Assembly: GCA_947462105.1 (NCBI GenBank)
Contig: CANHNJ010000007.1
Coordinates: 19,638-83,637 of the forward strand
Source of the DNA: Alphaproteobacteria bacterium
GTDB taxonomy: Bacteria; Pseudomonadota; Alphaproteobacteria; Micropepsales; Micropepsaceae
Direction of reading: 5' to 3'
DNA length: 64,000 nucleotides
A program made the position numbers and the translations under genes. Under the pieces are notes generated by a model. The model searched no databases. It worked only from the letters and a program-made list of their open reading frames with translations, and was not told the DNA's origin. Shown piece by piece: positions 7,468-55,850 of this stretch (positions are counted from its first letter, which is position 1; the number at the start of each line of letters is the position of its first letter).

Positions 7468-7959
7468 GCAACACAAGCCATTAAAGTGTTGGTTGGCCCT
7501 ATCCCCACTCCCTATGCACACCAGACCGCACCACATTCATCCCCGCAACGATGGTGGAAGCGGAAAGTGGGTAGGCGCGATGGCAGGGGGAGGGGTGGCG
7601 CGAAAAACGCAAAACAAAGATCAAGCGCTGGCGCTTTCGCGCCTGTCACCGGGCCGCATCTTGTGATGTTCCGCCGGGCGTGGAGGCCGCGCTGGTGGAT
7701 AGGCTAGGAGACGGTCTGCGCGATGATCGACGCCAGCCCCGCGTCATCGCAACGAAATACAACGGGTGCGCTGGGAAAAAGTTCCATACCCAGGATTAGC
7801 CGGTATTCCTCAAATAGATAGCCGTTTTTGCTTCCCCCCGCCGTGGCGCTTGTCTAGGGTCGCCCGCGAAGGTCGAGCGGGGAACGCTCCCTTCCCTGAC
7901 GCGGTGGCCGTCCCGGGTGCCCCAGGTCATTGCCCAACTCATTCCCAAGGAACAGCCGC

Positions 7960-8184: not shown

Positions 8185-8979
8185 TCAGGGCGAAGGCTGG
8201 ATGATGGCGCGGCGATAGGTCGGCTGGGAATCCCAGGACAGCGCCTTTTCCGTGCCGTCGAACAGCGACGCGAACTTGCCACCGCCCACCTTGAAACTGA
8301 ATTCGCTCACCCGGTCCGGCGGCGTGGTGGTGACGTTGCGGGCAATGTCGGTTTCCTGCTCGGTGCGGGCGACCACCAGCTGCGCCGGATTGGTGGGATT
8401 GTAGAAGCGCACTTCGGACGCGGCGCGGTTGGCGGGGCCGCGCACATACTTCACATGCAGCGTGGCGCTTTCGCCGCCAGTGCCGGTCAGCGACCAATCC
8501 TCGGTCACGGTGGTGCTGCCATTGGCGGTGGCGATGCTGCGGCTGGCGGCGCTGCGCGTCGCCTTGACCAGCGTGCCGAAGGTGGCGGCAGTGGCGCTGT
8601 TGTTCTCGCTGATGCCGGCGATCACCATGCGTCCGGTGGCGGTGCCGCCGGTCTGGCGCACCGGCGCCTCCAGATAGACGGCGATATCCTTGCCCGGCGG
8701 CAGCACGCGGGCCGCACCATCCAGCAGGTTAATGCGGTCAATGAAGATCATGCGCAGGTTGCAGTCCTTGGCCGGACCCTGCGCCGCAACGGCAGGCTCC
8801 CATCCGGCGGGCAGCAGTTTCGCCAGCGCCTGTGCATTCACGGCTACGTCAAGCTGGAAGCGATACTCGTTGGACTGTTCCAGCACCGTGCCGGTGACGG
8901 GCGCGGGTGCAGGTGGCGGCGTCTGCGCCTGCGCGGTGGTGGTGAGCAAAAGCGCCGTCAGCAAAGCCAGTTTCTTCAT
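8185..8979 (-). CDS. Secreted hypothetical protein (signal peptide MKKLALL...AQA)
   Basis: GGGGA RBS, Sec signal peptide followed by a Pro-rich linker; downstream of the amidohydrolase on the same strand. Confidence 0.8.
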   Translation of the reverse strand: MKKLALLTALLLTTTAQAQTPPPAPAPVTGTVLEQSNEYRFQLDVAVNAQALAKLLPAGWEPAVAAQGPAKDCNLRMIFIDRINLLDGAARVLPPGKDIAVYLEAPVRQTGGTATGRMVIAGISENNSATAATFGTLVKATRSAASRSIATANGSTTVTEDWSLTGTGGESATLHVKYVRGPANRAASEVRFYNPTNPAQLVVARTEQETDIARNVTTTPPDRVSEFSFKVGGGKFASLFDGTEKALSWDSQPTYRRAIIQPSP

Positions 8980-8997
8980 GATGTCCCCCAATTGCGC

Positions 8998-9942
8998 TCA
9001 GCCTTTCAGGCCGAGCAGATTGTGTGTGTTGGTCCAGGCGATCTTGCGGAAGACCGCCGGCGTGGCAGCCCCCGCCAGCACGGTCAGCGTCTCGCGCGCC
9101 ACGCATTTGCCGCGAATGCGCGGCGCGACGGTGGGATTATCCCGGCCCGCGCCACGTCCGTCGGCGCAACTGCAATCACTGCCAAAATGCAACTTGTCCT
9201 GGTACTTGATCAGGAATTCCCTGGTGAAGGCGGCATTGCGCGACAGGGCATTGTTGCCCGAATTGGCGGACAGGTCGGCATGCATGTTGGGATAATCCGA
9301 CAGCAGCTTCAGGATCACGCCGCCTGGCGCGATCGGACCTTCGGGATAGACATCCTTTTCCGCATAGTCGCCGCTGATATTGGCCCAGAAGGCGTCGCCA
9401 TGGCCGATGAATTTGGTGCGCGGGAAGGCCTTCAGCATGCCTTCGAAGCGCTTGACGCCCATATTGTAGCCGCCGGGCGCGGCGGGCTGGCCGATCTCCT
9501 GGAAATGCAGCAGCACCGGCACATCCAGTTCGGCGGCGACAGCATAGACGCGGCGCATTTCCGGCCCGCCGGCTTCCACCTGGTATTTGAGCTCACCAAA
9601 GCCCCTGGCGCCGGCTTTTGCCGCGTCGGTCAGGCGCTTCTCGATGTCGGGTGCGGCGACATTATACGCGCCGAACCAGCTGGGGAACATGGCTGGGTTG
9701 CTGGCCTGTACCGCTGCGGTCTGGGCAACGCCATCGGCGCGGGTCAGAAGGTTGGCGGCGGTGATGCCCGCGCCCACCTGGTGCGCGATGCTTTGTTCCG
9801 GTGAGCGCATGTGGAAATGCAGATCGATGACGGGCGAGGGCCAGTGCGGCGCATCTGCAGACGAAGAAACCTGCGCCTGTGCAGACAACAGGCCCGTCGC
9901 TGGAATCGCGCCAAGGCCCGCCAGTACGGAACGCCTGTCCAT
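8998..9942 (-). CDS. Amidohydrolase_2 family metallohydrolase with Tat signal
   Basis: MDRRSVL twin-arginine leader; VIDLHFH, VLLHF, FIGHG, LHFGSD metal motifs. Confidence 0.85.
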   Translation of the reverse strand: MDRRSVLAGLGAIPATGLLSAQAQVSSSADAPHWPSPVIDLHFHMRSPEQSIAHQVGAGITAANLLTRADGVAQTAAVQASNPAMFPSWFGAYNVAAPDIEKRLTDAAKAGARGFGELKYQVEAGGPEMRRVYAVAAELDVPVLLHFQEIGQPAAPGGYNMGVKRFEGMLKAFPRTKFIGHGDAFWANISGDYAEKDVYPEGPIAPGGVILKLLSDYPNMHADLSANSGNNALSRNAAFTREFLIKYQDKLHFGSDCSCADGRGAGRDNPTVAPRIRGKCVARETLTVLAGAATPAVFRKIAWTNTHNLLGLKG

Positions 9943-9990
9943 CGCCGTTGCCCCCGCAGATATTATTGTTGGAAGAAGCCTAGCGCCTCG

Positions 9991-10599
9991 TCAGTCCAGG
10001 CGAAAGTTAAAGCTTACGCTGATCCGCCGGCCCCGGGCCCGATTGGGCTGCACGCCGTGGCGCAGCCAGCTTTCCCACAGCAGCAGCAGGCCCGGCCTGG
10101 GCTGCACATCGACAAAGCTGCGGTTTTCCAGCCGCGCCGTCGGCTTGCGTGGTGGCGCCGACATCATCAGGCCAAGGCGCGGGTCTTCGAAGCGGATCGC
10201 GCCGCTGCCCGGCGGCGCCGTCACATAATAGGTGCCGCTGATGACGGAATGCGGATGGATGTGCGGGGCGTGGATGGCATCCTTTTCCATCACGTTCACC
10301 CAGAGCGAATCCAGTTTCAGTTTGCGCCGCCCCAGCTCGAATTGCGCCTTGCGCGCGAACAGCTGCACTTCGCGGTCGATACGCTGGGCCAGGTCGGCGA
10401 AAGGCGGCGCGCGCCGGGTCAGGTCGTCGAGCGAGGCATAGGACGTGTAGCCCTTGTAGCCATGTGCTTTCGACCAGCGCTGGCCCGCCCGGTCTTCCGC
10501 CGCGATCAGCAGGGCGGCAGCCTCCAGCTCGGGATTGCGCCCGGTTCCAAGGTTGGCGCCCAGCAGCGGCGTGGCGAAAAGCGTGTCGAAAGCGGCCAT
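9991..10599 (-). CDS. TIGR02466-family putative 2OG-Fe(II) oxygenase
   Basis: HAPHIHPHSVISGTYYV, WESWLRHGV, RISVSFN. Confidence 0.85.
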   Translation of the reverse strand: MAAFDTLFATPLLGANLGTGRNPELEAAALLIAAEDRAGQRWSKAHGYKGYTSYASLDDLTRRAPPFADLAQRIDREVQLFARKAQFELGRRKLKLDSLWVNVMEKDAIHAPHIHPHSVISGTYYVTAPPGSGAIRFEDPRLGLMMSAPPRKPTARLENRSFVDVQPRPGLLLLWESWLRHGVQPNRARGRRISVSFNFRLD

Positions 10600-10691
10600 T
10601 TCCGGGGTTTCCGAGTCGGTCTGTCGGAGAAGTTAGTGGTTATTTGACCATTTGCGTAGGAAGATAGTGCTGCCTTCGAAGGGTCCCGCCC

Positions 10692-10871
10692 ATGCGTCTT
10701 ACCGCCGCCGCCGTCATTGCTGTCGCCGCTTTCACCCTGTCGGGCTGCATCGCCTATGACGTTGCGTCCACCGCCGTGGGCGTGGCCACCACCGTGGTCA
10801 GCACAGGCGTCAGTGTTGCCGGTGGCGCGATCTGTAGCGTCGCCTGCTCGTCGGACGACGACAAGAAGTAA
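10692..10871 (+). CDS. Small lipoprotein (59 aa; missed by ORF track)
   Basis: MRLTAAAVIAVAAFTLSGC lipobox, then IAYDVASTAVGVATTVVSTGVSVAGGAICSVACSSDDDKK. Confidence 0.75.
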   Translation: MRLTAAAVIAVAAFTLSGCIAYDVASTAVGVATTVVSTGVSVAGGAICSVACSSDDDKK

Positions 10872-10906
10872 TCAGTGGCGCGTCGCTACGCTGCTGCGAG
10901 CGACCA

Positions 10907-11638
10907 TCAAAAAACATCTTTCCGACTGCGGATTTCGGCGAAGACGCTGACATCGTCTGCCGTCTCCATGCCCAGCGTCTTGCGAATCTCGCGTGAACCC
11001 GTGCGCAGGAAGGGGTTGGTCGCTTTCTCTTCCGCAAGCGTCGATGGCACGCTGGGCGTCTGCAGGTTTTTCACCCGCGCCTGCAGTGCCGGATTGCCTG
11101 GCTCCAACGTAAGCGCGAAGCGGCTATTGCTGGCGGCATATTCATGGCCGCACCAGATCTTCGTGTCATCCGGCAGCGCCTTCAGCTTAGCCAGGCTGGC
11201 CGACATCATCGCCGCATCGCCTTCGAACAGGCGGCCACAGCCCAGCACGAACAGCGTGTCGCCGGTGAAGGCGTTGCCGTCGATCACGAAGGTGATGGCG
11301 CCGCGCGTGTGCGCCGGAACTTCCAGCACCTGCACCTTGTGACCGGCAAATTCCCAGCCATCCTTTTCGGTGACGCCGATATCCAGACCAGGAATGCGGT
11401 GGCGGTCATTTTCCGGTCCCACCACCAGCGCGCCGGTGGCCGCCTGCAACGCCAGATTGCCGCCGGTATGGTCGCCATGATGATGGGTGTTGAGGATGTG
11501 GGTCAGGCGCAAGCCTTCGCGGCTCAGCGCCGCCAGCACCGGTTCCGGCTCCGACGGGTCCACCACGGCGCAGGAATCCCCCGTGGCGATAAAATAGGCG
11601 TAATTGTCCTTCAGGCAGGGCACGGTCATAATGCGCAT
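10907..11638 (-). CDS. gloB: Hydroxyacylglutathione hydrolase (glyoxalase II)
   Basis: THHHGDHTGG, GDTLF, CGHEY, EEKATNPFLR. Confidence 0.95.
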   Translation of the reverse strand: MRIMTVPCLKDNYAYFIATGDSCAVVDPSEPEPVLAALSREGLRLTHILNTHHHGDHTGGNLALQAATGALVVGPENDRHRIPGLDIGVTEKDGWEFAGHKVQVLEVPAHTRGAITFVIDGNAFTGDTLFVLGCGRLFEGDAAMMSASLAKLKALPDDTKIWCGHEYAASNSRFALTLEPGNPALQARVKNLQTPSVPSTLAEEKATNPFLRTGSREIRKTLGMETADDVSVFAEIRSRKDVF

Positions 11639-11667
11639 GGCCTCATCCTAACAGCAGAGCATGGCCC

Positions 11668-12390
11668 GTGTTAGAGCGTCGTGTGCAGGAGCCGGACGCG
11701 CCGCTGGTCGCCGATTTCTATGGCACCCGCGCCGGCATGATCGCGCGCCGTGCCATTCTCGCCCGGCTGAAGGCGATGTGGCCGGGCCTGTTCGGCTATC
11801 GCCTGCTGGGCTTCGGCTTCACCACGCCCTATCTCACCGCCTTCGGAGCCGAGCGCGCCATCGCCGCCGGTCCCGTCTCGCTGGGCGGGGCGCACCTGAT
11901 CTGCGAGGAAGAGTCGCTGCCTTTCGCCGACGCGCTGTTCGACCGGGTGCTGCTGGTGCATGCGCTGGAGCATGCCGAGAGCCTGCGCCCGCTGCTGCGC
12001 CAGTTGTGGCGGGTGCTGGCACCGGAAGGCAGGCTGCTGGTGGTGGCGCCCAATCGCGCCAGCCTGTGGGCGCAGATCGATCGCATCCCCTTCGGCCAGG
12101 GCCGTCCTTTCTCGCGCCCGGAACTGGACCGCATTCTGCGTGAGGCCTTGTTCGAACCGGAACGCTGGGAGCGGGCGCTCTATGCGCCGCCGCTGGGCAC
12201 GCGCTTCCTGGCGAATAACGGCGTGGGCTGGGAAAAGGCGGGGGCGCTGCTATTTCCGGCGCTGGGCGGCGTTCATCTTGTGGAAGCAAGGAAATCGATC
12301 TACGCGATGACACCGCTGCCGGTGGAAACGGCTTCGGTGACGCCGCTGCTGCAGCCGGATTTCTCTAGCTCTTCTTCAGCAAGAAAATAG
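11668..12390 (+). CDS. Class I SAM-dependent methyltransferase (YafS-like)
   Basis: LLGFGF, LPFADALFDRVLLVHALE, RVLAPEGRL; divergent from gloB as usual. Confidence 0.85.
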   Translation: MLERRVQEPDAPLVADFYGTRAGMIARRAILARLKAMWPGLFGYRLLGFGFTTPYLTAFGAERAIAAGPVSLGGAHLICEEESLPFADALFDRVLLVHALEHAESLRPLLRQLWRVLAPEGRLLVVAPNRASLWAQIDRIPFGQGRPFSRPELDRILREALFEPERWERALYAPPLGTRFLANNGVGWEKAGALLFPALGGVHLVEARKSIYAMTPLPVETASVTPLLQPDFSSSSSARK

Positions 12391-38313: not shown

Positions 38314-39696
38314 ATGAACAAGCAAGCGGCGTTACTCATCATCACCGTCCTGATCGCCCTGCGCGCCGTGGCGGGCGCGGTCCTGCCGCTATCGGCGGAC
38401 GAGGCCTATTACCTGCTGTGGTCACAGCATCTGCAGCCTGGCTACTACGATCACCCGCCCGCCATCGCCTTCCTGATCCGTGCCGGCACGATGATCTTCG
38501 GGGAAACACCGCTGGGCGTGCGGGCTGCGGGCATCCTGCTCTCAGTGCCGGCCAGCTGGTTTGTCTGGAGCACGGCGTCCGCCATATTGAAGGATGCAAG
38601 AAAGGCAGCGCTCGCAGCGGTCTTCTTCAACCTGACCTTGATGACGGCGGTGGAGATGATGGCGGCGACGCCAGACATGCCCTCCATCGTCACGGCAGCC
38701 GCCTTCATCTGGGCCATCGCCCGGGCGCAGGCGACGCAGGATGGGCGCTGGTGGCTTGCAGCAGGTGTTGCTGCGGGGCTGTCACTGTTGTCGAAATATT
38801 CCGCCCTGTTCCTGGGGCTGGGCGTGCTGGTCTGGCTCCTGGCGGATGCACGGGCCCGCATCTGGCTCAAGACCATCTGGCCCTGGGCCGGTGGCGCGCT
38901 GGCGCTGCTGCTCTTCGCGCCGCACCTGCTGTGGCAGGCGCAGCATGACTGGATGACCTTTGCTTTCCAGTTCGGCCGGGTCGGCGGCGGCAATCCCACC
39001 GCGCGCTACCTGATTGAATTTTTCGGCGCGCAACTGGGCCTCGCCACGCCGTTCATCCTGGTGCTGGGCTTGATTGGCTTCTGGGCCGCGCGCCGGCGCG
39101 GCGATGACCGCTTCCTGCTGTTTGTGCCGCTGGCGGTATCGCTGCTCTATTTCCTGCAGCATGCATTGCATGACCGGGTGCAGGGCAACTGGCCCGGTTT
39201 TCTCTATCCGCTGCTGGCGATTCTGGCAGCGGACGCCATCGACAAGACAAGGCGCTGGCTGGTGCTGGCGGCGGCGCCCGTGGCGGCGCTGTTGCTGCTG
39301 GCAGTGTATGCGCAGGTGATCTTCGGTATGCCGCTGAAGAACGATCCCTCGGCGCGATTGCTGGCACGCGATTTTTCGGACGCGGCACAGGCCCTGGCGG
39401 CAAGCACCGCTACGGTGGTGACCAGTGACTACCAGACCACCGCGCTGCTCAGGTACTACCAGCCGAAATTGACCGTGATCCAGATCAACGATCCGCAGCG
39501 TTACTTGTGGGCGCGCGATTCCGGGCGGCTCCGTGGGCAGGTGGTCTATTTCGCGGAGAAACGCCGGGCCCGCCTCGATCTGGTGGAAGGCCGGGCGCAA
39601 CTGATCAGCAGCCCGATGGATTTTGGCGCCTCGGGAAATTACGCGGGTTATCTGTTGCACGCGCCGAAAGATTCTCTTTTCGGCAAAATCCCCTAA
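38314..39696 (+). CDS. GT39/ArnT-like (PMT_2) membrane glycosyltransferase
   Basis: DEAYY, YYDHPP, LSKY; multiple TM helices. Confidence 0.88.
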   Translation: MNKQAALLIITVLIALRAVAGAVLPLSADEAYYLLWSQHLQPGYYDHPPAIAFLIRAGTMIFGETPLGVRAAGILLSVPASWFVWSTASAILKDARKAALAAVFFNLTLMTAVEMMAATPDMPSIVTAAAFIWAIARAQATQDGRWWLAAGVAAGLSLLSKYSALFLGLGVLVWLLADARARIWLKTIWPWAGGALALLLFAPHLLWQAQHDWMTFAFQFGRVGGGNPTARYLIEFFGAQLGLATPFILVLGLIGFWAARRRGDDRFLLFVPLAVSLLYFLQHALHDRVQGNWPGFLYPLLAILAADAIDKTRRWLVLAAAPVAALLLLAVYAQVIFGMPLKNDPSARLLARDFSDAAQALAASTATVVTSDYQTTALLRYYQPKLTVIQINDPQRYLWARDSGRLRGQVVYFAEKRRARLDLVEGRAQLISSPMDFGASGNYAGYLLHAPKDSLFGKIP

Positions 39697-39717: not shown

Positions 39718-39783
39718 GAGCTGCGCAGCGAAGCCGCGCGACGGCCATCCGCTTGGGCGAAGGGCGGAGGGGATAGTTCAATA
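39718..39783 (-). repeat. Internally deleted third copy of the structured repeat
   Basis: Minus strand TTATTGAAC...CGGATG-GCCGTCGCGC-GGCTTCGCTGCG resembles both ends of copy A. Confidence 0.5.
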
Positions 39784-39886
39784 ACAAAAACCCCGCCCTT
39801 GTGGGCGGGGTTTTTAGGATTGAGCGGACACCCGAGGCGGGCTGTCGAAGGGGCTGGGGGCGTTCCGGATCAGACGTCCGCTCGCA
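39783..39886 (-). ncRNA. Candidate EcfG-dependent small RNA (~100 nt), GsrN-like
   Basis: Perfect GGAAC-N16-CGTT promoter, 8-bp closing stem GAGCGGAC/GTCCGCTC, C-rich internal segment, intrinsic terminator, no meaningful ORF. Confidence 0.55.
39786..39815. terminator. Bidirectional rho-independent terminator
   Basis: AAAAACCCCGCCC-TTGT-GGGCGGGGTTTTT. Confidence 0.9.
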
Positions 39887-39892
39887 GATAAA

Positions 39893-39917
39893 AACGATCC
39901 GCCAAAAAGATCGTTCC
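39893..39917 (-). promoter_or_regulatory. EcfG/sigmaT-type promoter
   Basis: Minus strand GGAAC-GATCTTTTTGGCGGAT-CGTT (exact consensus, 16-nt spacer). Confidence 0.75.
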
Positions 39918-39925
39918 GCGACCTC

Positions 39926-40075
39926 TTAATTATTTTCCGAAGCCGCGATCTGGGTTCCCACTGGCGCAGGCGGGGTGCCGTCGGCGGCAATGAAAAGCAG
40001 GCCCAGCAGCAGGACCGCTGCCATCACGCTTTCGGCAGGATGGTCGGCAAGGAAATTTGGAACCTTGAAGATCAT
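39926..40075 (-). CDS. Small membrane protein (49 aa; missed by ORF track)
   Basis: [49 protein letters not shown]; GAGGAG RBS and ATGA overlap with DUF1328. Confidence 0.7.
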
Positions 40076-40254
40076 GGCATCTCCTCAGGCGGGCGGCCGC
40101 GTAGCGCTCCGGAAAAGGCGCTGACGACCAGAAGAACGAGAAACACGACCAGTAAAAACTTGGCGATGATCGCGGCGGTCCCCGCCAGGCCATAAAAGCC
40201 CATATAGGCGGCGACCAGCGCCAGAACGAAAAAGGCGAAAGCCCAGCTCAGCAT
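40072..40254 (-). CDS. DUF1328 (UPF0391) small membrane protein
   Basis: [34 protein letters not shown]...RGRPP. Confidence 0.9.
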
Positions 40255-40284
40255 GACGTTCCTGCTCAATCCTTGCGGACACGG

Positions 40285-40309
40285 AACGTCATGCCTAGTT
40301 CCCGGTTCC
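40285..40309 (-). promoter_or_regulatory. EcfG/sigmaT-type promoter of DUF1328
   Basis: Minus strand GGAAC-CGGGAACTAGGCATGA-CGTT (exact consensus), 30 nt upstream of the ATG. Confidence 0.75.
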
Positions 40310-40323
40310 GGGAACTCTGTGGA

Positions 40324-40677
40324 TCAATTCGGATTTTTGGCGCGCTGGCGCTTCACGATCACATCGACCAGCTTGAGCAGGCCGGCGCTCGCCACGGCGG
40401 GCCAGGGCACGTCCCGGGCCAGGGCGCCCATCAGCAGGGCGAAGAAATTTTGCGGCGGCGGCGGCGGCGGGCGGCGGGGGCGGAAAATTGCCGACACGCC
40501 GAACCCGGCCAGCACCACCAGCAGCATGATGCCGCCGGTCAGGGCATAGGCGCCGGTGTTACCGAACTGGGCAACCAGCGCAGAGGCCAGCGCCAGGCCC
40601 AGCAGGCCGACACCGAAAAAGACCAGCGCCGCTGCTGCGACCAGAAGAAGGAATTTTGCACCAAGGCGCGCGAACAT
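40324..40677 (-). CDS. YqjE-like (holin-superfamily) small membrane protein
   Basis: Two TM helices plus Pro-rich tail; follows a DUF883 gene as in yqjDE. Confidence 0.65.
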   Translation of the reverse strand: MFARLGAKFLLLVAAAALVFFGVGLLGLALASALVAQFGNTGAYALTGGIMLLVVLAGFGVSAIFRPRRPPPPPPQNFFALLMGALARDVPWPAVASAGLLKLVDVIVKRQRAKNPN

Positions 40678-40794
40678 GCCCAAGACTCCAGATCTCTCTC
40701 CGTCAGACCGGGAGAGCATACCGGTTCCGGCTTATCAGACCTTTAGCAGACCCGCAAAACCCCTGCGGTGCGCCCCGCCGCAAGGCTTCAGGCT

Positions 40795-41160
40795 TCAGCG
40801 GCGCAGAAAAATCGCCCCGAGAAAGGCGCCGATGCCGCCCGCGATCAGCAGCGAGGTCAGCGGCTGGGCCCGGACTTGGGCACGCAGTTCGTCGGCATTG
40901 TCCTCGGCCCATTCCTGGGCATCGTCCTTGTATTCCACCGCCTTGAGCTTGGCTTCGCGGGCGGCTTCCTCGGCCAGCAGCATGGCGCGGTCCGCCACTT
41001 CCTCGGCGGCCTGCATCGCCGCCGTGGCACGGGCAGATGCGACTTCGCTGACATCGCCGTAAAGGCCCTTGAGATCGCCCTGCAGGGACGCGAAATCATC
41101 GCGCAAGGCCGCGAGCCGCGCTTCGATATTGCCCTGGGCCGTTTTTTTCTTCGCCGCCAT
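40795..41160 (-). CDS. DUF883/ElaB/YqjD family protein
   Basis: Helical body plus C-terminal VRAQPLTSLLIAGGIGAFLGAIFLRR anchor. Confidence 0.88.
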   Translation of the reverse strand: MAAKKKTAQGNIEARLAALRDDFASLQGDLKGLYGDVSEVASARATAAMQAAEEVADRAMLLAEEAAREAKLKAVEYKDDAQEWAEDNADELRAQVRAQPLTSLLIAGGIGAFLGAIFLRR

Positions 41161-41198
41161 GTCGAACGCTCCTGATACCTGAAACAATTATTGAGAGA

Positions 41199-41357
41199 TT
41201 AAGCCGCCTGTTTTGCGACAGGGTGGAAGAACAGCGCCTGGCCCACCGTCGCCTGCACCGTCTCGGGTAGGAAGGGCTTGGCGATGAGGTAGGTCGGCTC
41301 CGGACGCTCGCCGGTCAGCAGCTTTTCCGGATAGGCGGTGATGAAGATCACCGGGAT
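41199..41357 (-). pseudogene. phyR: phyR 3' remnant (last 52 codons of the receiver domain)
   Basis: IPVIFITAYPEKLLTGERPEPTYLIAKPF...QALFF, the characteristic PhyR C-terminus; cut exactly at the IS end. Confidence 0.9.
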
Positions 41358-41490
41358 TGATCGCCCCCCACTGGGTGGTCCGTTTTGATTGTTAGTGCAT
41401 TCCAGCCTCCAGCGCTATGGCCGGCCGTAGGTGGAGCGTAGCGGAACCGGAGGGCGGCCATAGCGGCGACGCGGTTTCGGGAGCCGGCGG
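41358..41490 (-). mobile_element. Right-end remnant of an IS3-family insertion sequence
   Basis: Minus strand encodes PPAPETASPLWPPSGSATLHLRPAIALEAGMH* (IS3-family OrfB-type tail after RPPAPE), then an IR-like ...GGACCACCCAGTGGGGGGCGATCA ending in CA. Confidence 0.75.
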
Positions 41491-42012
41491 CGCGTGAAGC
41501 ATTGATACAGGCCCAGACCCACATCAATGCCCTGGCACTGGTGCAACGCATCCTCAACGAGGCTGGAGAACCAGAGCACCCTCGACCTCAAGGACCTGCT
41601 GGGCGCGCTCTGCCGCCAGATCACCGAGGGCATGGGGGCGGAGAATGTCAGCATCGAGGTCGATGTGCCCAGCCGCGTCGTCACCGGCAGTATCGCGGTG
41701 GCGATTGCGCTGTTCACGGTGGAAGTCCTAACCAGTATCTTTAAGCATGCCTTCCCCGGCCAGCGGCATGGCGTGATCCGGGTGACGATGACCGAGACCG
41801 GCGACGGGAAATTGCGCCTGGGCATCGCCGATGACGGCAGCGGCTTCGAGGAGGGGCAGGCCACCAAGAGCGTCGGCTCCCGCCTGATCAAGATCTTCGG
41901 GCTACAGCTGGGCGGGGTTGCCCAGGTCCGCTCGGTGGCGGGCGAGGGGGCGGTGGTGGAATTGATTTTCCCCGATCCGGCCCTATCGCCGCCTGTTGCC
42001 GCGTCTGTTTGA
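41490..42012 (+). pseudogene. HisKA_2/HWE-type sensor histidine kinase 3' remnant, frameshifted at ~41562
   Basis: AREALIQAQTHINALALVQRILNE, +1 shift, then LENQSTLDL...KHAF...ADDGSGF...GSRLI HATPase; H-box and sensor domain absent. Confidence 0.85.
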
Positions 42013-42015
42013 TGA

Positions 42016-42158
42016 ACCCCCATCCATCGCAACTCGGGTCCGCTAAGTAGCGGACACCTTGTTGCGACACCTTCCCTCTTTCAGGCGCGCCGATGCGCGC
42101 AAAGGGGGAAGGAAGCTGGCGGATGCTGCCGGTCGCCCGGCAGCTGCGCTGCCTGGCT
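42016..42158 (+). repeat. ~140-bp structured dispersed repeat, copy B
   Basis: Aligns with the reverse complement of 33197-33335. Confidence 0.85.
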
Positions 42159-55085: not shown

Positions 55086-55850
55086 TCACTTTACGAGCAC
55101 GGGGCCCTTGTTCTCGCCTTGCACCGATTCGGGCATGATTCCCAGCCGTTTTGCGACTTCCGAATAGGCTTCGATCACGCCGCCCATGTCGCGGCGGAAA
55201 CGGTCCTTGTCCAGCTTGTCGCCGGTGGCGGCATCCCACAGGCGGCAATTGTCCGGGCTGATCTCGTCGGCCAGGACGATGCGCATATAGTCGTTTTCCC
55301 ACAGCCGGCCGAATTCCAGCTTGAAGTCCACCAGCTTGATGCCGGCGCCCAGGAACAGGCCCGACAGGAAGTCGTTGACCCGGATGGTGAGGTTGACGAT
55401 ATCGTCCAGGTCCTGCGGGCTTGCCCAGCCGAACGCCGTGATGTGCTCTTCGCTCACCCACGGATCCTGCAGCCCATCATTCTTGTAGTAATATTCGATG
55501 ATCGAGCGGGGCAGGGCGGTGCCTTCCTCGATGCCCAGGCGCTTGGACATGGAGCCGGCGGCGATATTGCGCACCACCACTTCCAGCGGGATGATCTCGA
55601 CTTCCTTGATCAACTGCTCGCGCATGTTGAGGCGGCGCACGAAATGGGTGGGCACGCCGATGCCGGCGAGCTGTGTCATCAGGTATTCGCTGATGCGGTT
55701 GTTGAGGACGCCCTTGCCTTCGATCGTGTCTTTCTTGGCGCCGTTGCCGGCGGTGGCATCATCCTTGAAATACTGGATCATGGTGCCGGGCTCGGTTCCT
55801 TCGTAAAGGATCTTGGCCTTGCCTTCGTAGATGACGCGGCGGCGTTTCAT
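55086..55850 (-). CDS. purC: SAICAR synthetase
   Basis: [38 protein letters not shown]. Confidence 0.97.

Follow-up and report, generated by a model that had tools for sequence, protein, structure and literature searches.

Within the 64-kb stretch of DNA analysed here (the window), a gene for a PMT_2/GT39-type glycosyltransferase on the plus strand (38314-39696) converges with a minus-strand operon (40309-39926) that has its own EcfG-type promoter (40309-40285) and comprises a DUF1328 gene (40269-40072) and a conserved 49-aa membrane-protein ORF (40075-39926, stop codon at 39928-39926). Downstream of this operon and on the same strand lies a further EcfG-type promoter, an exact GGAAC-N16-CGTT match (39917-39893) composed of a GGAAC −35 box (39917-39913), a 16-nt spacer and a CGTT −10 box (39896-39893). 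It heads a compact unit of ~103 nt (39885-39783, minus strand), whose candidate transcription start (39882-39885) would fall 8-11 nt past the −10 box, at the foot of a 5′ stem. A 62-nt 5′ domain, hereafter the core (GAGCGGACGUCUGAUCCGGAACGCCCCCAGCCCCUUCGACAGCCCGCCUCGGGUGUCCGCUC, 39883-39822), begins after a gap of 9 nt from CGTT and is built from a terminal stem of 9+4(+3) bp and an apical loop. The outer stem pairs GAGCGGAC (39883-39876) with GTCCGCTC (39829-39822) and encloses the C-rich CGCCCCCAGCCCC; the 24-nt C-rich apical loop itself, AACGCCCCCAGCCCCUUCGACAGC (39841-39864), is the presumed pairing, or seed, region. The segment that follows (39821-39781) contains an A/U-rich linker, AAUCCUAAAAA, an intrinsic terminator and a U-tract, with the terminator hairpin AAAAACCCCGCCC-ACAA-GGGCGGGGTTTTT (also given as CCCCGCCC-ACAA-GGGCGGGG) at 39815-39786 and a U-run extending to ~39783. 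This terminator is bidirectional, and transcripts of the convergent glycosyltransferase gene, as well as read-through out of the DUF1328/49-aa operon, are likely to end there too.

A preliminary description of this locus had reported the exact promoter, a stem enclosing C-rich tracts and a strong intrinsic terminator within an ORF-less stretch. All of these were present where it had placed them, the terminator with the refinement that it acts in both directions, and we found no credible ORF, the single overlapping frame being discounted below. The GGAAC-N16-CGTT motif occurs four times in the window against an expectation of 0.36, a count that none of 100 shuffles reached, and one of the three other exact copies is the promoter preceding the DUF1328 gene (40309-40285). 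The 105-nt RNA has a minimum free energy (MFE) of −50.6 kcal/mol, compared with −33.5 ± 3.3 for shuffled sequences (z = −5.2; 0 of 200 as good), and its MFE fold consists of a 14-bp stem plus 3 bp around the 24-nt loop, followed by the terminator. An Rfam search, which the preliminary description had put forward as a check on a resemblance to the Caulobacter sRNA GsrN, did not connect the element to any family: at the gathering thresholds of Rfam 15, tRNA alone passed in the window and the RNA region matched nothing. Look-alikes surfacing in a permissive scan (rnk leader, Leu leader, RNAI and others) were sub-threshold matches driven by the terminator hairpin, and we rejected them.

To follow the element in other genomes, we searched a collection of species-representative genomes with the convergent glycosyltransferase as anchor, which returned 80 loci, nearly all labelled Rhizomicrobium, Micropepsales or Micropepsaceae; the window is itself from a bacterium of the Rhizomicrobium/Micropepsales group. 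The RNA region was found in 64 of these 80 (nhmmer, E-values 5e-31 to 1e-7), so that, with the window counted in, 65 of 81 Micropepsales loci carry it. Its position was constant, past the 3′ end of the glycosyltransferase gene and on the opposite strand, with one copy per locus; this single copy in a constant slot rules out a repeat or mobile element. A covariance model of the core (R1) likewise found one copy in the entire window, at 94.3 bits, and had no match in the 16 anchored loci that lack the RNA. The element represents an RNA family with members across the order Micropepsales and no entry in Rfam.

Conservation was concentrated in the core, where mean pairwise identity across the 64 loci reached 94% and 37 columns were invariant, while the anchor protein was 46-83% identical between loci (typically ~50%) and the promoter spacer only 43%. 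The promoter boxes behaved differently from the spacer between them: the GGAAC −35 box was kept in 62 of 64 loci, the spacer measured 16 nt in 59 of 63-64, and the −10 box read NNTT, with the TT retained (CATT in 29, CGTT in 19, GGTT in 6, and others). Boxes and spacing that are kept while the spacer drifts are the signature of a used promoter, and these data show that the EcfG-type −35 and −10 boxes are under selection. The appearance of CATT rather than the textbook CGTT in 29 of the 64 loci is among the points that we weighed against our main reading of the element, given below. Conservation set in abruptly at GAGCGG, 9 nt from the −10 box in 53 of 63 loci; this onset coincides with where a transcript from such a promoter would be expected to start, and we place the predicted start there.

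Within the core, the loop was nearly invariant overall and identical in 42 of 64 loci, and it fell into two subtypes, GGAACGCCCCCAGCCCC and GGUACGCCCCAGCCCC, with several members of the GGUACGCCCCAGCCCC subtype carrying a second C-rich loop in the terminator hairpin. The terminator was the least conserved part of the element, variable in sequence and constant in position: a canonical hairpin stood 25-65 nt past the core in 44 of 64 loci, and in the remaining loci the 3′ end of the RNA overlaps the end of the glycosyltransferase gene. A single substitution, C to U opposite G, separates the window's own core from the family consensus, and it preserves the pair. These results agree with the expectation of the preliminary description, for which promoter, stem and C-rich loop should recur in related genomes.

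The alignment also bears on the fold. On the named structure 98.5% of pair cells were paired, compared with 25-48% when the partners were slid, and RNAalifold independently recovered a stem of 9+4+3 bp with an apical loop of 26 columns. AACGCCCCCAGCCCCUUCGACAGC was unpaired in both the MFE and the consensus fold. Double-sided changes occurred at three pairs (GC to AU, CG to UA, and AU to GC via GU), two of them traced to one divergent member, L078; because the sequence barely varies, support from covariation is modest. An alternative fold with a 9-bp stem and two mini-hairpins fitted the alignment equally well. The outer 9 bp of the stem are therefore firm, and the inner arrangement fits a 14+3-bp stem or two mini-hairpins alike.

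In relatives, the element sits at the general stress locus. The typical order is GT2 and GT39 on the plus strand, followed on the opposite strand by the sRNA, the 49-aa ORF (in some loci), DUF1328, a 131-aa membrane protein, an ElaB-like DUF883 protein and phyR, with nepR, ecfG, an HWE histidine kinase and lpd divergent from phyR. One relative's locus, L001, shows the complete module: phyR (8792-9607, minus strand), nepR (9771-9965), ecfG (9962-10591) and a kinase of 588 aa (10530-12296). The sRNA thus lies on the same strand as phyR and downstream of it, with zero to four stress genes between them, and in the locus L061 its promoter begins 57 nt past the phyR stop. Six loci (L039, L041, L044, L054, L073 and L074) have no stress genes or regulatory locus, and there the RNA and its promoter stand alone between GT39 and lpd. 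Across the relatives' loci, no protein gene other than those of the stress locus was consistently linked to the element.

The window itself carries a deleted form of this locus. Its alignment to L001 falls into two blocks, 39783-41357 (L001 7376-8950) and 41490-41981 (L001 11775-12265), between which 132 bp of unrelated filler (41358-41489) replace 2,824 bp of L001. Lost with this segment are the first ~220 codons of phyR, nepR, ecfG and ~400 codons of the kinase. What remains of phyR is its final 50 codons (minus strand, 41351-41199), and of the HWE kinase a C-terminal portion (plus strand, 41490-42012). The neighbouring DUF1328/ElaB stress genes and the phyR remnant noticed in the preliminary description are accordingly borne out, the remnant being what a 2.8-kb deletion spared. 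Contigs sharing 85-100% of the region's words place the deleted form in independent metagenomes of several studies, and the junction is itself spanned by such contigs (for example X40, at 41238-41894), which indicates a real lineage rather than an assembly artefact. Among 20 size-matched ORFs tested in the 64-kb window, none encoded a second EcfG or PhyR or another ECF sigma factor; that the adjacent ecfG is deleted and no driving sigma factor was found in 64 kb is a further point weighed against our main reading. The RNA gene and its perfect-consensus promoter are nevertheless intact despite loss of the module. Many Alphaproteobacteria carry several ecfG paralogues, and either the promoter is served by such a paralogue encoded at another place in the genome, or loss of the module is recent.

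GsrN is, to our knowledge, the only alphaproteobacterial general-stress sRNA to have been characterised in detail, and BLAST finds it in Caulobacteraceae alone. In Caulobacter crescentus, GsrN (CCNA_R0081) is a 106-nt RNA transcribed from a σT/EcfG promoter, with a mapped start at the foot of a stem, the same relative place as the start predicted here (Tien, Fiebig & Crosson 2018, PMC5869019). It acts through pairing of a C-tract, binding G-rich mRNA leaders such as that of katG, which it activates, and is processed endonucleolytically to a stable 5′ isoform and stabilised by Hfq (PMC5869019). We compared the window RNA with the gsrN sequence and promoter taken from the supplementary gene blocks of that study. 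Both have a GGAAC-N16-CGTT promoter; both are of similar size (106 nt versus ~103 nt); both have a long 5′ terminal stem with the start (predicted, in our case) at its foot, an exposed C-rich tract containing ACGCCCCC, and an intrinsic terminator at the end; and conservation peaks in the 5′ domain of each. They also share a genomic slot just downstream of phyR, on the same strand and beside nepR-ecfG, which in our case is seen in relatives.

The two RNAs differ in other respects. Beyond one 8-mer nothing is alignable: local alignment to GsrN returned ACGCCCCC only, at a score equalled by 577 of 2,000 shuffles. The C-tract of GsrN lies in an internal loop on the 5′ side and is followed by a GAAA mini-hairpin, whereas that of the new RNA lies in the 24-nt apical loop together with a second C-run, CCCCCAGCCCC; the linker before the terminator is also much shorter here, so that the second exposed region of GsrN has no counterpart. 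A GsrN model (10 sequences; A3, R2) scored 12.8 bits on the window RNA, compared with 12.9 bits for a match in a coding region, and its 22-23 bits on two Micropepsales members equal the level of an unrelated hairpin plus terminator. Conversely, the Micropepsales covariance model found nothing in the GsrN contigs.

A metagenome scan for an EcfG promoter followed after 8-38 nt by ACGCCCCC gave at least 120 matches, mostly due to chance, with a flat gap distribution; as the pattern requires the tract, the scan is no measure of how general the tract is. Among the matches listed, a peak at gaps of 20-21 nt corresponded to nine true GsrN homologues, and none of those with a gap of 29 belonged to the Micropepsales family. 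Six of the nine homologue contigs, from Caulobacterales, contained phyR, nepR and ecfG, with gsrN 37-766 nt past phyR on the same strand, and the GsrN 5′ domain was conserved among Caulobacterales to a degree similar to the Micropepsales core. The scan also revealed a third type, the metagenomic locus L154 (loop UUACGCCCCCUCCCCUGUA), convergent with a phyR only 48% identical to that of L001, which hints at a wider recurrence of the ACGCCCCC tract.

The preliminary description had proposed that the element is an analogue of GsrN or else a new family of EcfG-dependent sRNAs. The conserved gene, promoter, C-rich loop and position all uphold this proposal, while strict homology to GsrN was sought and went undetected, so that 'analogue or new family' is the correct wording and 'GsrN itself' is not. 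As sRNAs usually diverge past recognition between orders, common descent of the two RNAs is plausible, and we give it roughly an even chance. Occupancy of the same genomic slot as gsrN makes the RNA most likely the diverged positional counterpart of GsrN, and we regard it as a new GsrN-like family and possibly as a diverged positional orthologue.

Comparable arms of stress regulons are known elsewhere, among them the σE-dependent MicA, RybB and MicL and the σS-dependent SdsR of enterobacteria. Closer in phylogeny, putative GsrN-like RNAs beside the stress locus have been predicted in Rhizobiaceae, Brucella, Rhodopseudomonas and Bradyrhizobium from intergenic transcription, an EcfG site close to the consensus and a position near ecfG/phyR (PMC5869019, section 14). 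These too have an exposed C-rich 5′ loop, and the window RNA agrees with them in promoter, position and loop; they belong to other orders, Micropepsales lay outside that survey, and the likeness is one of description. RsaE, CyaR and RepG, cited in the same study, are C-rich-loop sRNAs aimed at G-rich sites (PMC5869019). With these and with the enterobacterial RNAs the likeness is functional only, in the logic of a stress-sigma sRNA that widens the regulon post-transcriptionally by means of an exposed C-rich seed, whereas sequence, structure and sigma factor are unrelated.

Expression was examined in assembled metatranscriptome contigs, which carry no information on strand or ends. Contigs from over 40 runs, covering soil, rhizosphere and lakes, contained the core, and one of them is 607 nt long at a depth of 42. 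Several of these contigs continue upstream through the promoter and join the upstream operon to the sRNA, which could reflect upstream read-through, DNA carry-over or both. In the best-matching metatranscriptome (X1), which represents a near-identical strain, depth was flat at ~5.8 over both convergent genes and the 3′ half of the RNA was uncovered. Because short structured RNAs are frequently lost from such libraries, this gap says little either way.

Several other accounts of the element were considered. That it encodes a small peptide has a negligible probability: a 58-aa ORF (39814-39990, minus strand) does cover part of the region, but it begins inside the upstream 49-aa gene in another frame, the core is 61, 62 or 63 nt long among relatives through 1-nt indels in the loop, which exclude a reading frame, and the relatives' alignment shows no third-position pattern of change across it. 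We also consider it very improbable that the region has no function of its own and instead supplies the DUF1328/49-aa operon with a 3′ UTR and a terminator that the glycosyltransferase gene also uses, the promoter motif being incidental. Such an arrangement would account for a bidirectional terminator that closes both convergent units and for RNA-run contigs that are continuous from the upstream operon, over the promoter, into the element. It would not lead one to expect 62 nt at 94% identity and a −35/−10 pair at fixed spacing across an order, in an element whose terminator is its least conserved part. Moreover, element and promoter survive in loci without the upstream operon, and L061 has them directly after phyR; this persistence without the upstream stress genes speaks against a mere 3′ UTR.

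Two further alternatives were weighed. The whole 62-nt domain of a transcribed, structured RNA might be a binding site for a conserved protein or another ligand, making the RNA a sponge, decoy or sensor rather than a seed-pairing regulator. Conservation of the whole domain, with both stem strands and 24 loop bases, extends beyond a short seed, and neither a duplex scan of the window nor 9-mer complements in all loci gave a convincing mRNA target. Against this, the 5′ domain of GsrN is similarly conserved in Caulobacterales yet pairs through its C-tract (PMC5869019), the second C-rich loops that recur in the terminator hairpins of one subtype fit a multi-seed pairing RNA, and the stress locus is the only protein-coding locus to which the element is consistently linked; we judge this reading unlikely. 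The other alternative concerns the window's lineage only, in which the gene could be a silent relic whose promoter has been unused since phyR-nepR-ecfG was lost. The exchange of 2,824 bp, from the phyR N-terminus through nepR and ecfG to the kinase N-terminus, for a 132-bp filler, the presence of this form in independent metagenomes of several studies, the failure to find an ECF sigma factor among the 20 size-matched window ORFs and the uncovered 3′ half of the RNA in the matching metatranscriptome all favour it. A relic, however, would not be expected to retain a perfect consensus promoter and a core with one pair-preserving change, or to be accompanied by three further exact EcfG-type motifs; in addition, ecfG paralogues are common in Alphaproteobacteria, and our view covers 64 kb of the genome. 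We regard a relic as improbable.

With its anatomy, its conservation, the selection on its promoter and its position at the stress locus of relatives established, we think it likely that 39885-39783 on the minus strand constitutes an independent gene, encoding a ~103-nt regulatory sRNA of the alphaproteobacterial general stress response. From the conserved promoter, RNA polymerase with an EcfG-type sigma factor would start ~9 nt past the −10 box, and from the conserved 3′ elements transcription would end at the intrinsic terminator. The 5′ two-thirds fold into a long, conserved stem that would keep the 24-nt C-rich loop open. By analogy with Caulobacter GsrN, the loop may pair with mRNA leaders or ribosome-binding regions at G-rich sites, probably with the assistance of Hfq, and such pairing would raise or lower the translation or stability of its targets and so form a post-transcriptional arm of the stress regulon. 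Target prediction over the window and the related loci was uninformative in this DNA of ~65% GC: a loop duplex scan of both window strands yielded 616 sites with energies of −20 kcal/mol or lower across the 64 kb, the best of them inside coding regions, and exact 9-mer complements in all loci gave 344 scattered matches with no recurrent homologous position. Recurrent matches to GGGGGCGTT were set aside as targets, being merely the −10 region of the nepR-ecfG promoter.

A bolder proposal, which we hold to be rather unlikely, is that the RNA does more than pair through a seed: its structure could bind a conserved protein or ligand of the stress circuit, and its transcription could depend on a second sigma factor instead of the local module. 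It is suggested by the freezing of the entire 62-nt domain across an order in which neighbouring proteins are ~50% identical, and by the fact that the RNA and its perfect promoter have outlasted the phyR-nepR-ecfG-kinase deletion. In a milder version, ACGCCCCC may be an ancient seed common to GsrN, the Micropepsales family and the L154 type; if true, these would be one pan-alphaproteobacterial RNA, always beside phyR.

Collectively, our results add to GsrN a second well-delimited family of general-stress sRNAs, represented by 64 sequences and described by a model, a consensus fold and a fixed slot. Its order, Micropepsales, is commonly met in soils, peat, rhizospheres and lakes. The RNA is a useful addition, moderately interesting and unsurprising in principle. 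It strengthens the idea that the alphaproteobacterial stress response includes, as standard, an EcfG-driven RNA with a C-rich loop beside phyR whose sequence turns over between orders, and the shared ACGCCCCC tract and position offer a handle on homology versus convergence among these RNAs. A widespread freshwater lineage that has lost the regulatory module yet kept the RNA and the regulon promoters represents a natural experiment on the rewiring of a regulon.

Comparison of window positions 41199-42012 with positions 8792-12296 of L001, a relative in which phyR and the nepR-ecfG-kinase genes are intact, revealed that the window lineage carries a 132-bp filler (41358-41489) in place of a 2,824-bp stretch. 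The missing DNA contained nepR and ecfG in full, most of phyR, and two-thirds of an HWE histidine kinase counted from its N-terminus; the scar retains the final 50 phyR codons and the ATPase domain of the kinase as remnants. The deletion junction is bridged by metagenome contigs obtained independently in several studies. In one lake metagenome (X31), read depth across 41375-41491 was 5-9 times that of the flanks (71-120x versus 10-15x), and one contig matched 41436-41491 alone and diverged beyond it. The filler, which also contains a terminator-like hairpin (41359-41380), probably represents part of a repeated or mobile element. The intergenic DNA that separates lpd from what remains of the kinase (42013-42141) shares 76% identity with L001 410-534; part of it, 42102-42141, recurs in other metagenome contigs with differing flanks and is a short dispersed repeat.

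Upstream of the GsrN-like sRNA gene, we identified a hydrophobic 49-aa ORF on the minus strand (39926-40075) that shares a 4-nt overlap with the stop of the DUF1328 gene. Pfam yielded no match for this ORF, but tblastn detected it in approximately 15 related loci (32-77% identity), and it probably encodes a genuine small membrane protein belonging to the stress regulon.

The sRNA promoter itself has been lost in L002, a close relative (GT39 identity 82%), where AT-rich sequence replaces the GGAAC promoter and both the RNA core and the terminator are retained (L002 7555-7660). Metatranscriptome contigs carrying the exact L002 variant (RNA runs X7 and X8) reach 34-89 nt past the upstream end of the core, which suggests a different promoter or read-through in this lineage.

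Examination of the RNA 3′ parts in nine loci (L039, L041, L044, L046, L054, L073, L074, L078 and L080) showed that the terminator hairpin of the GGUACGCCCCAG subtype has a C-rich loop of its own, for example GUGGUCCCCCCAG or CUCCCCCU, which is a possible second pairing site. The linker of the main subtype is likewise C/U-rich (CUCUUCCCCAAAA) in many members.

Elsewhere in the window, a second exact GGAAC-N16-CGTT motif (7761-7785, minus strand) is followed by approximately 450 nt, to about 7300, that lack a long ORF. At the start of this stretch is a hairpin with GGGGCUGG in its loop, to which 8 nt of the sRNA loop are complementary (a match within chance), and a C-rich tract, CCACCCCUCCCCCUGCC, lies farther along; the stretch could represent either a further non-coding RNA under stress control or a gene for a small protein. 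The fourth exact match (55352-55376, plus strand) lies inside, and antisense to, the SAICAR synthase gene (55086-55850, minus strand), and is either a chance match or an antisense promoter.

The same arrangement of an EcfG-type promoter, a hairpin in which ACGCCCCC is exposed, and a terminator was also found at other metagenomic loci, namely L154 (2443-2560, plus strand), L143 (3451-3560) and L133 (1259-1390). The candidate RNA of L154 is convergent to a phyR-nepR-ecfG locus, and its terminator presents a second C-rich loop. These three elements may represent further GsrN-like families in other orders.
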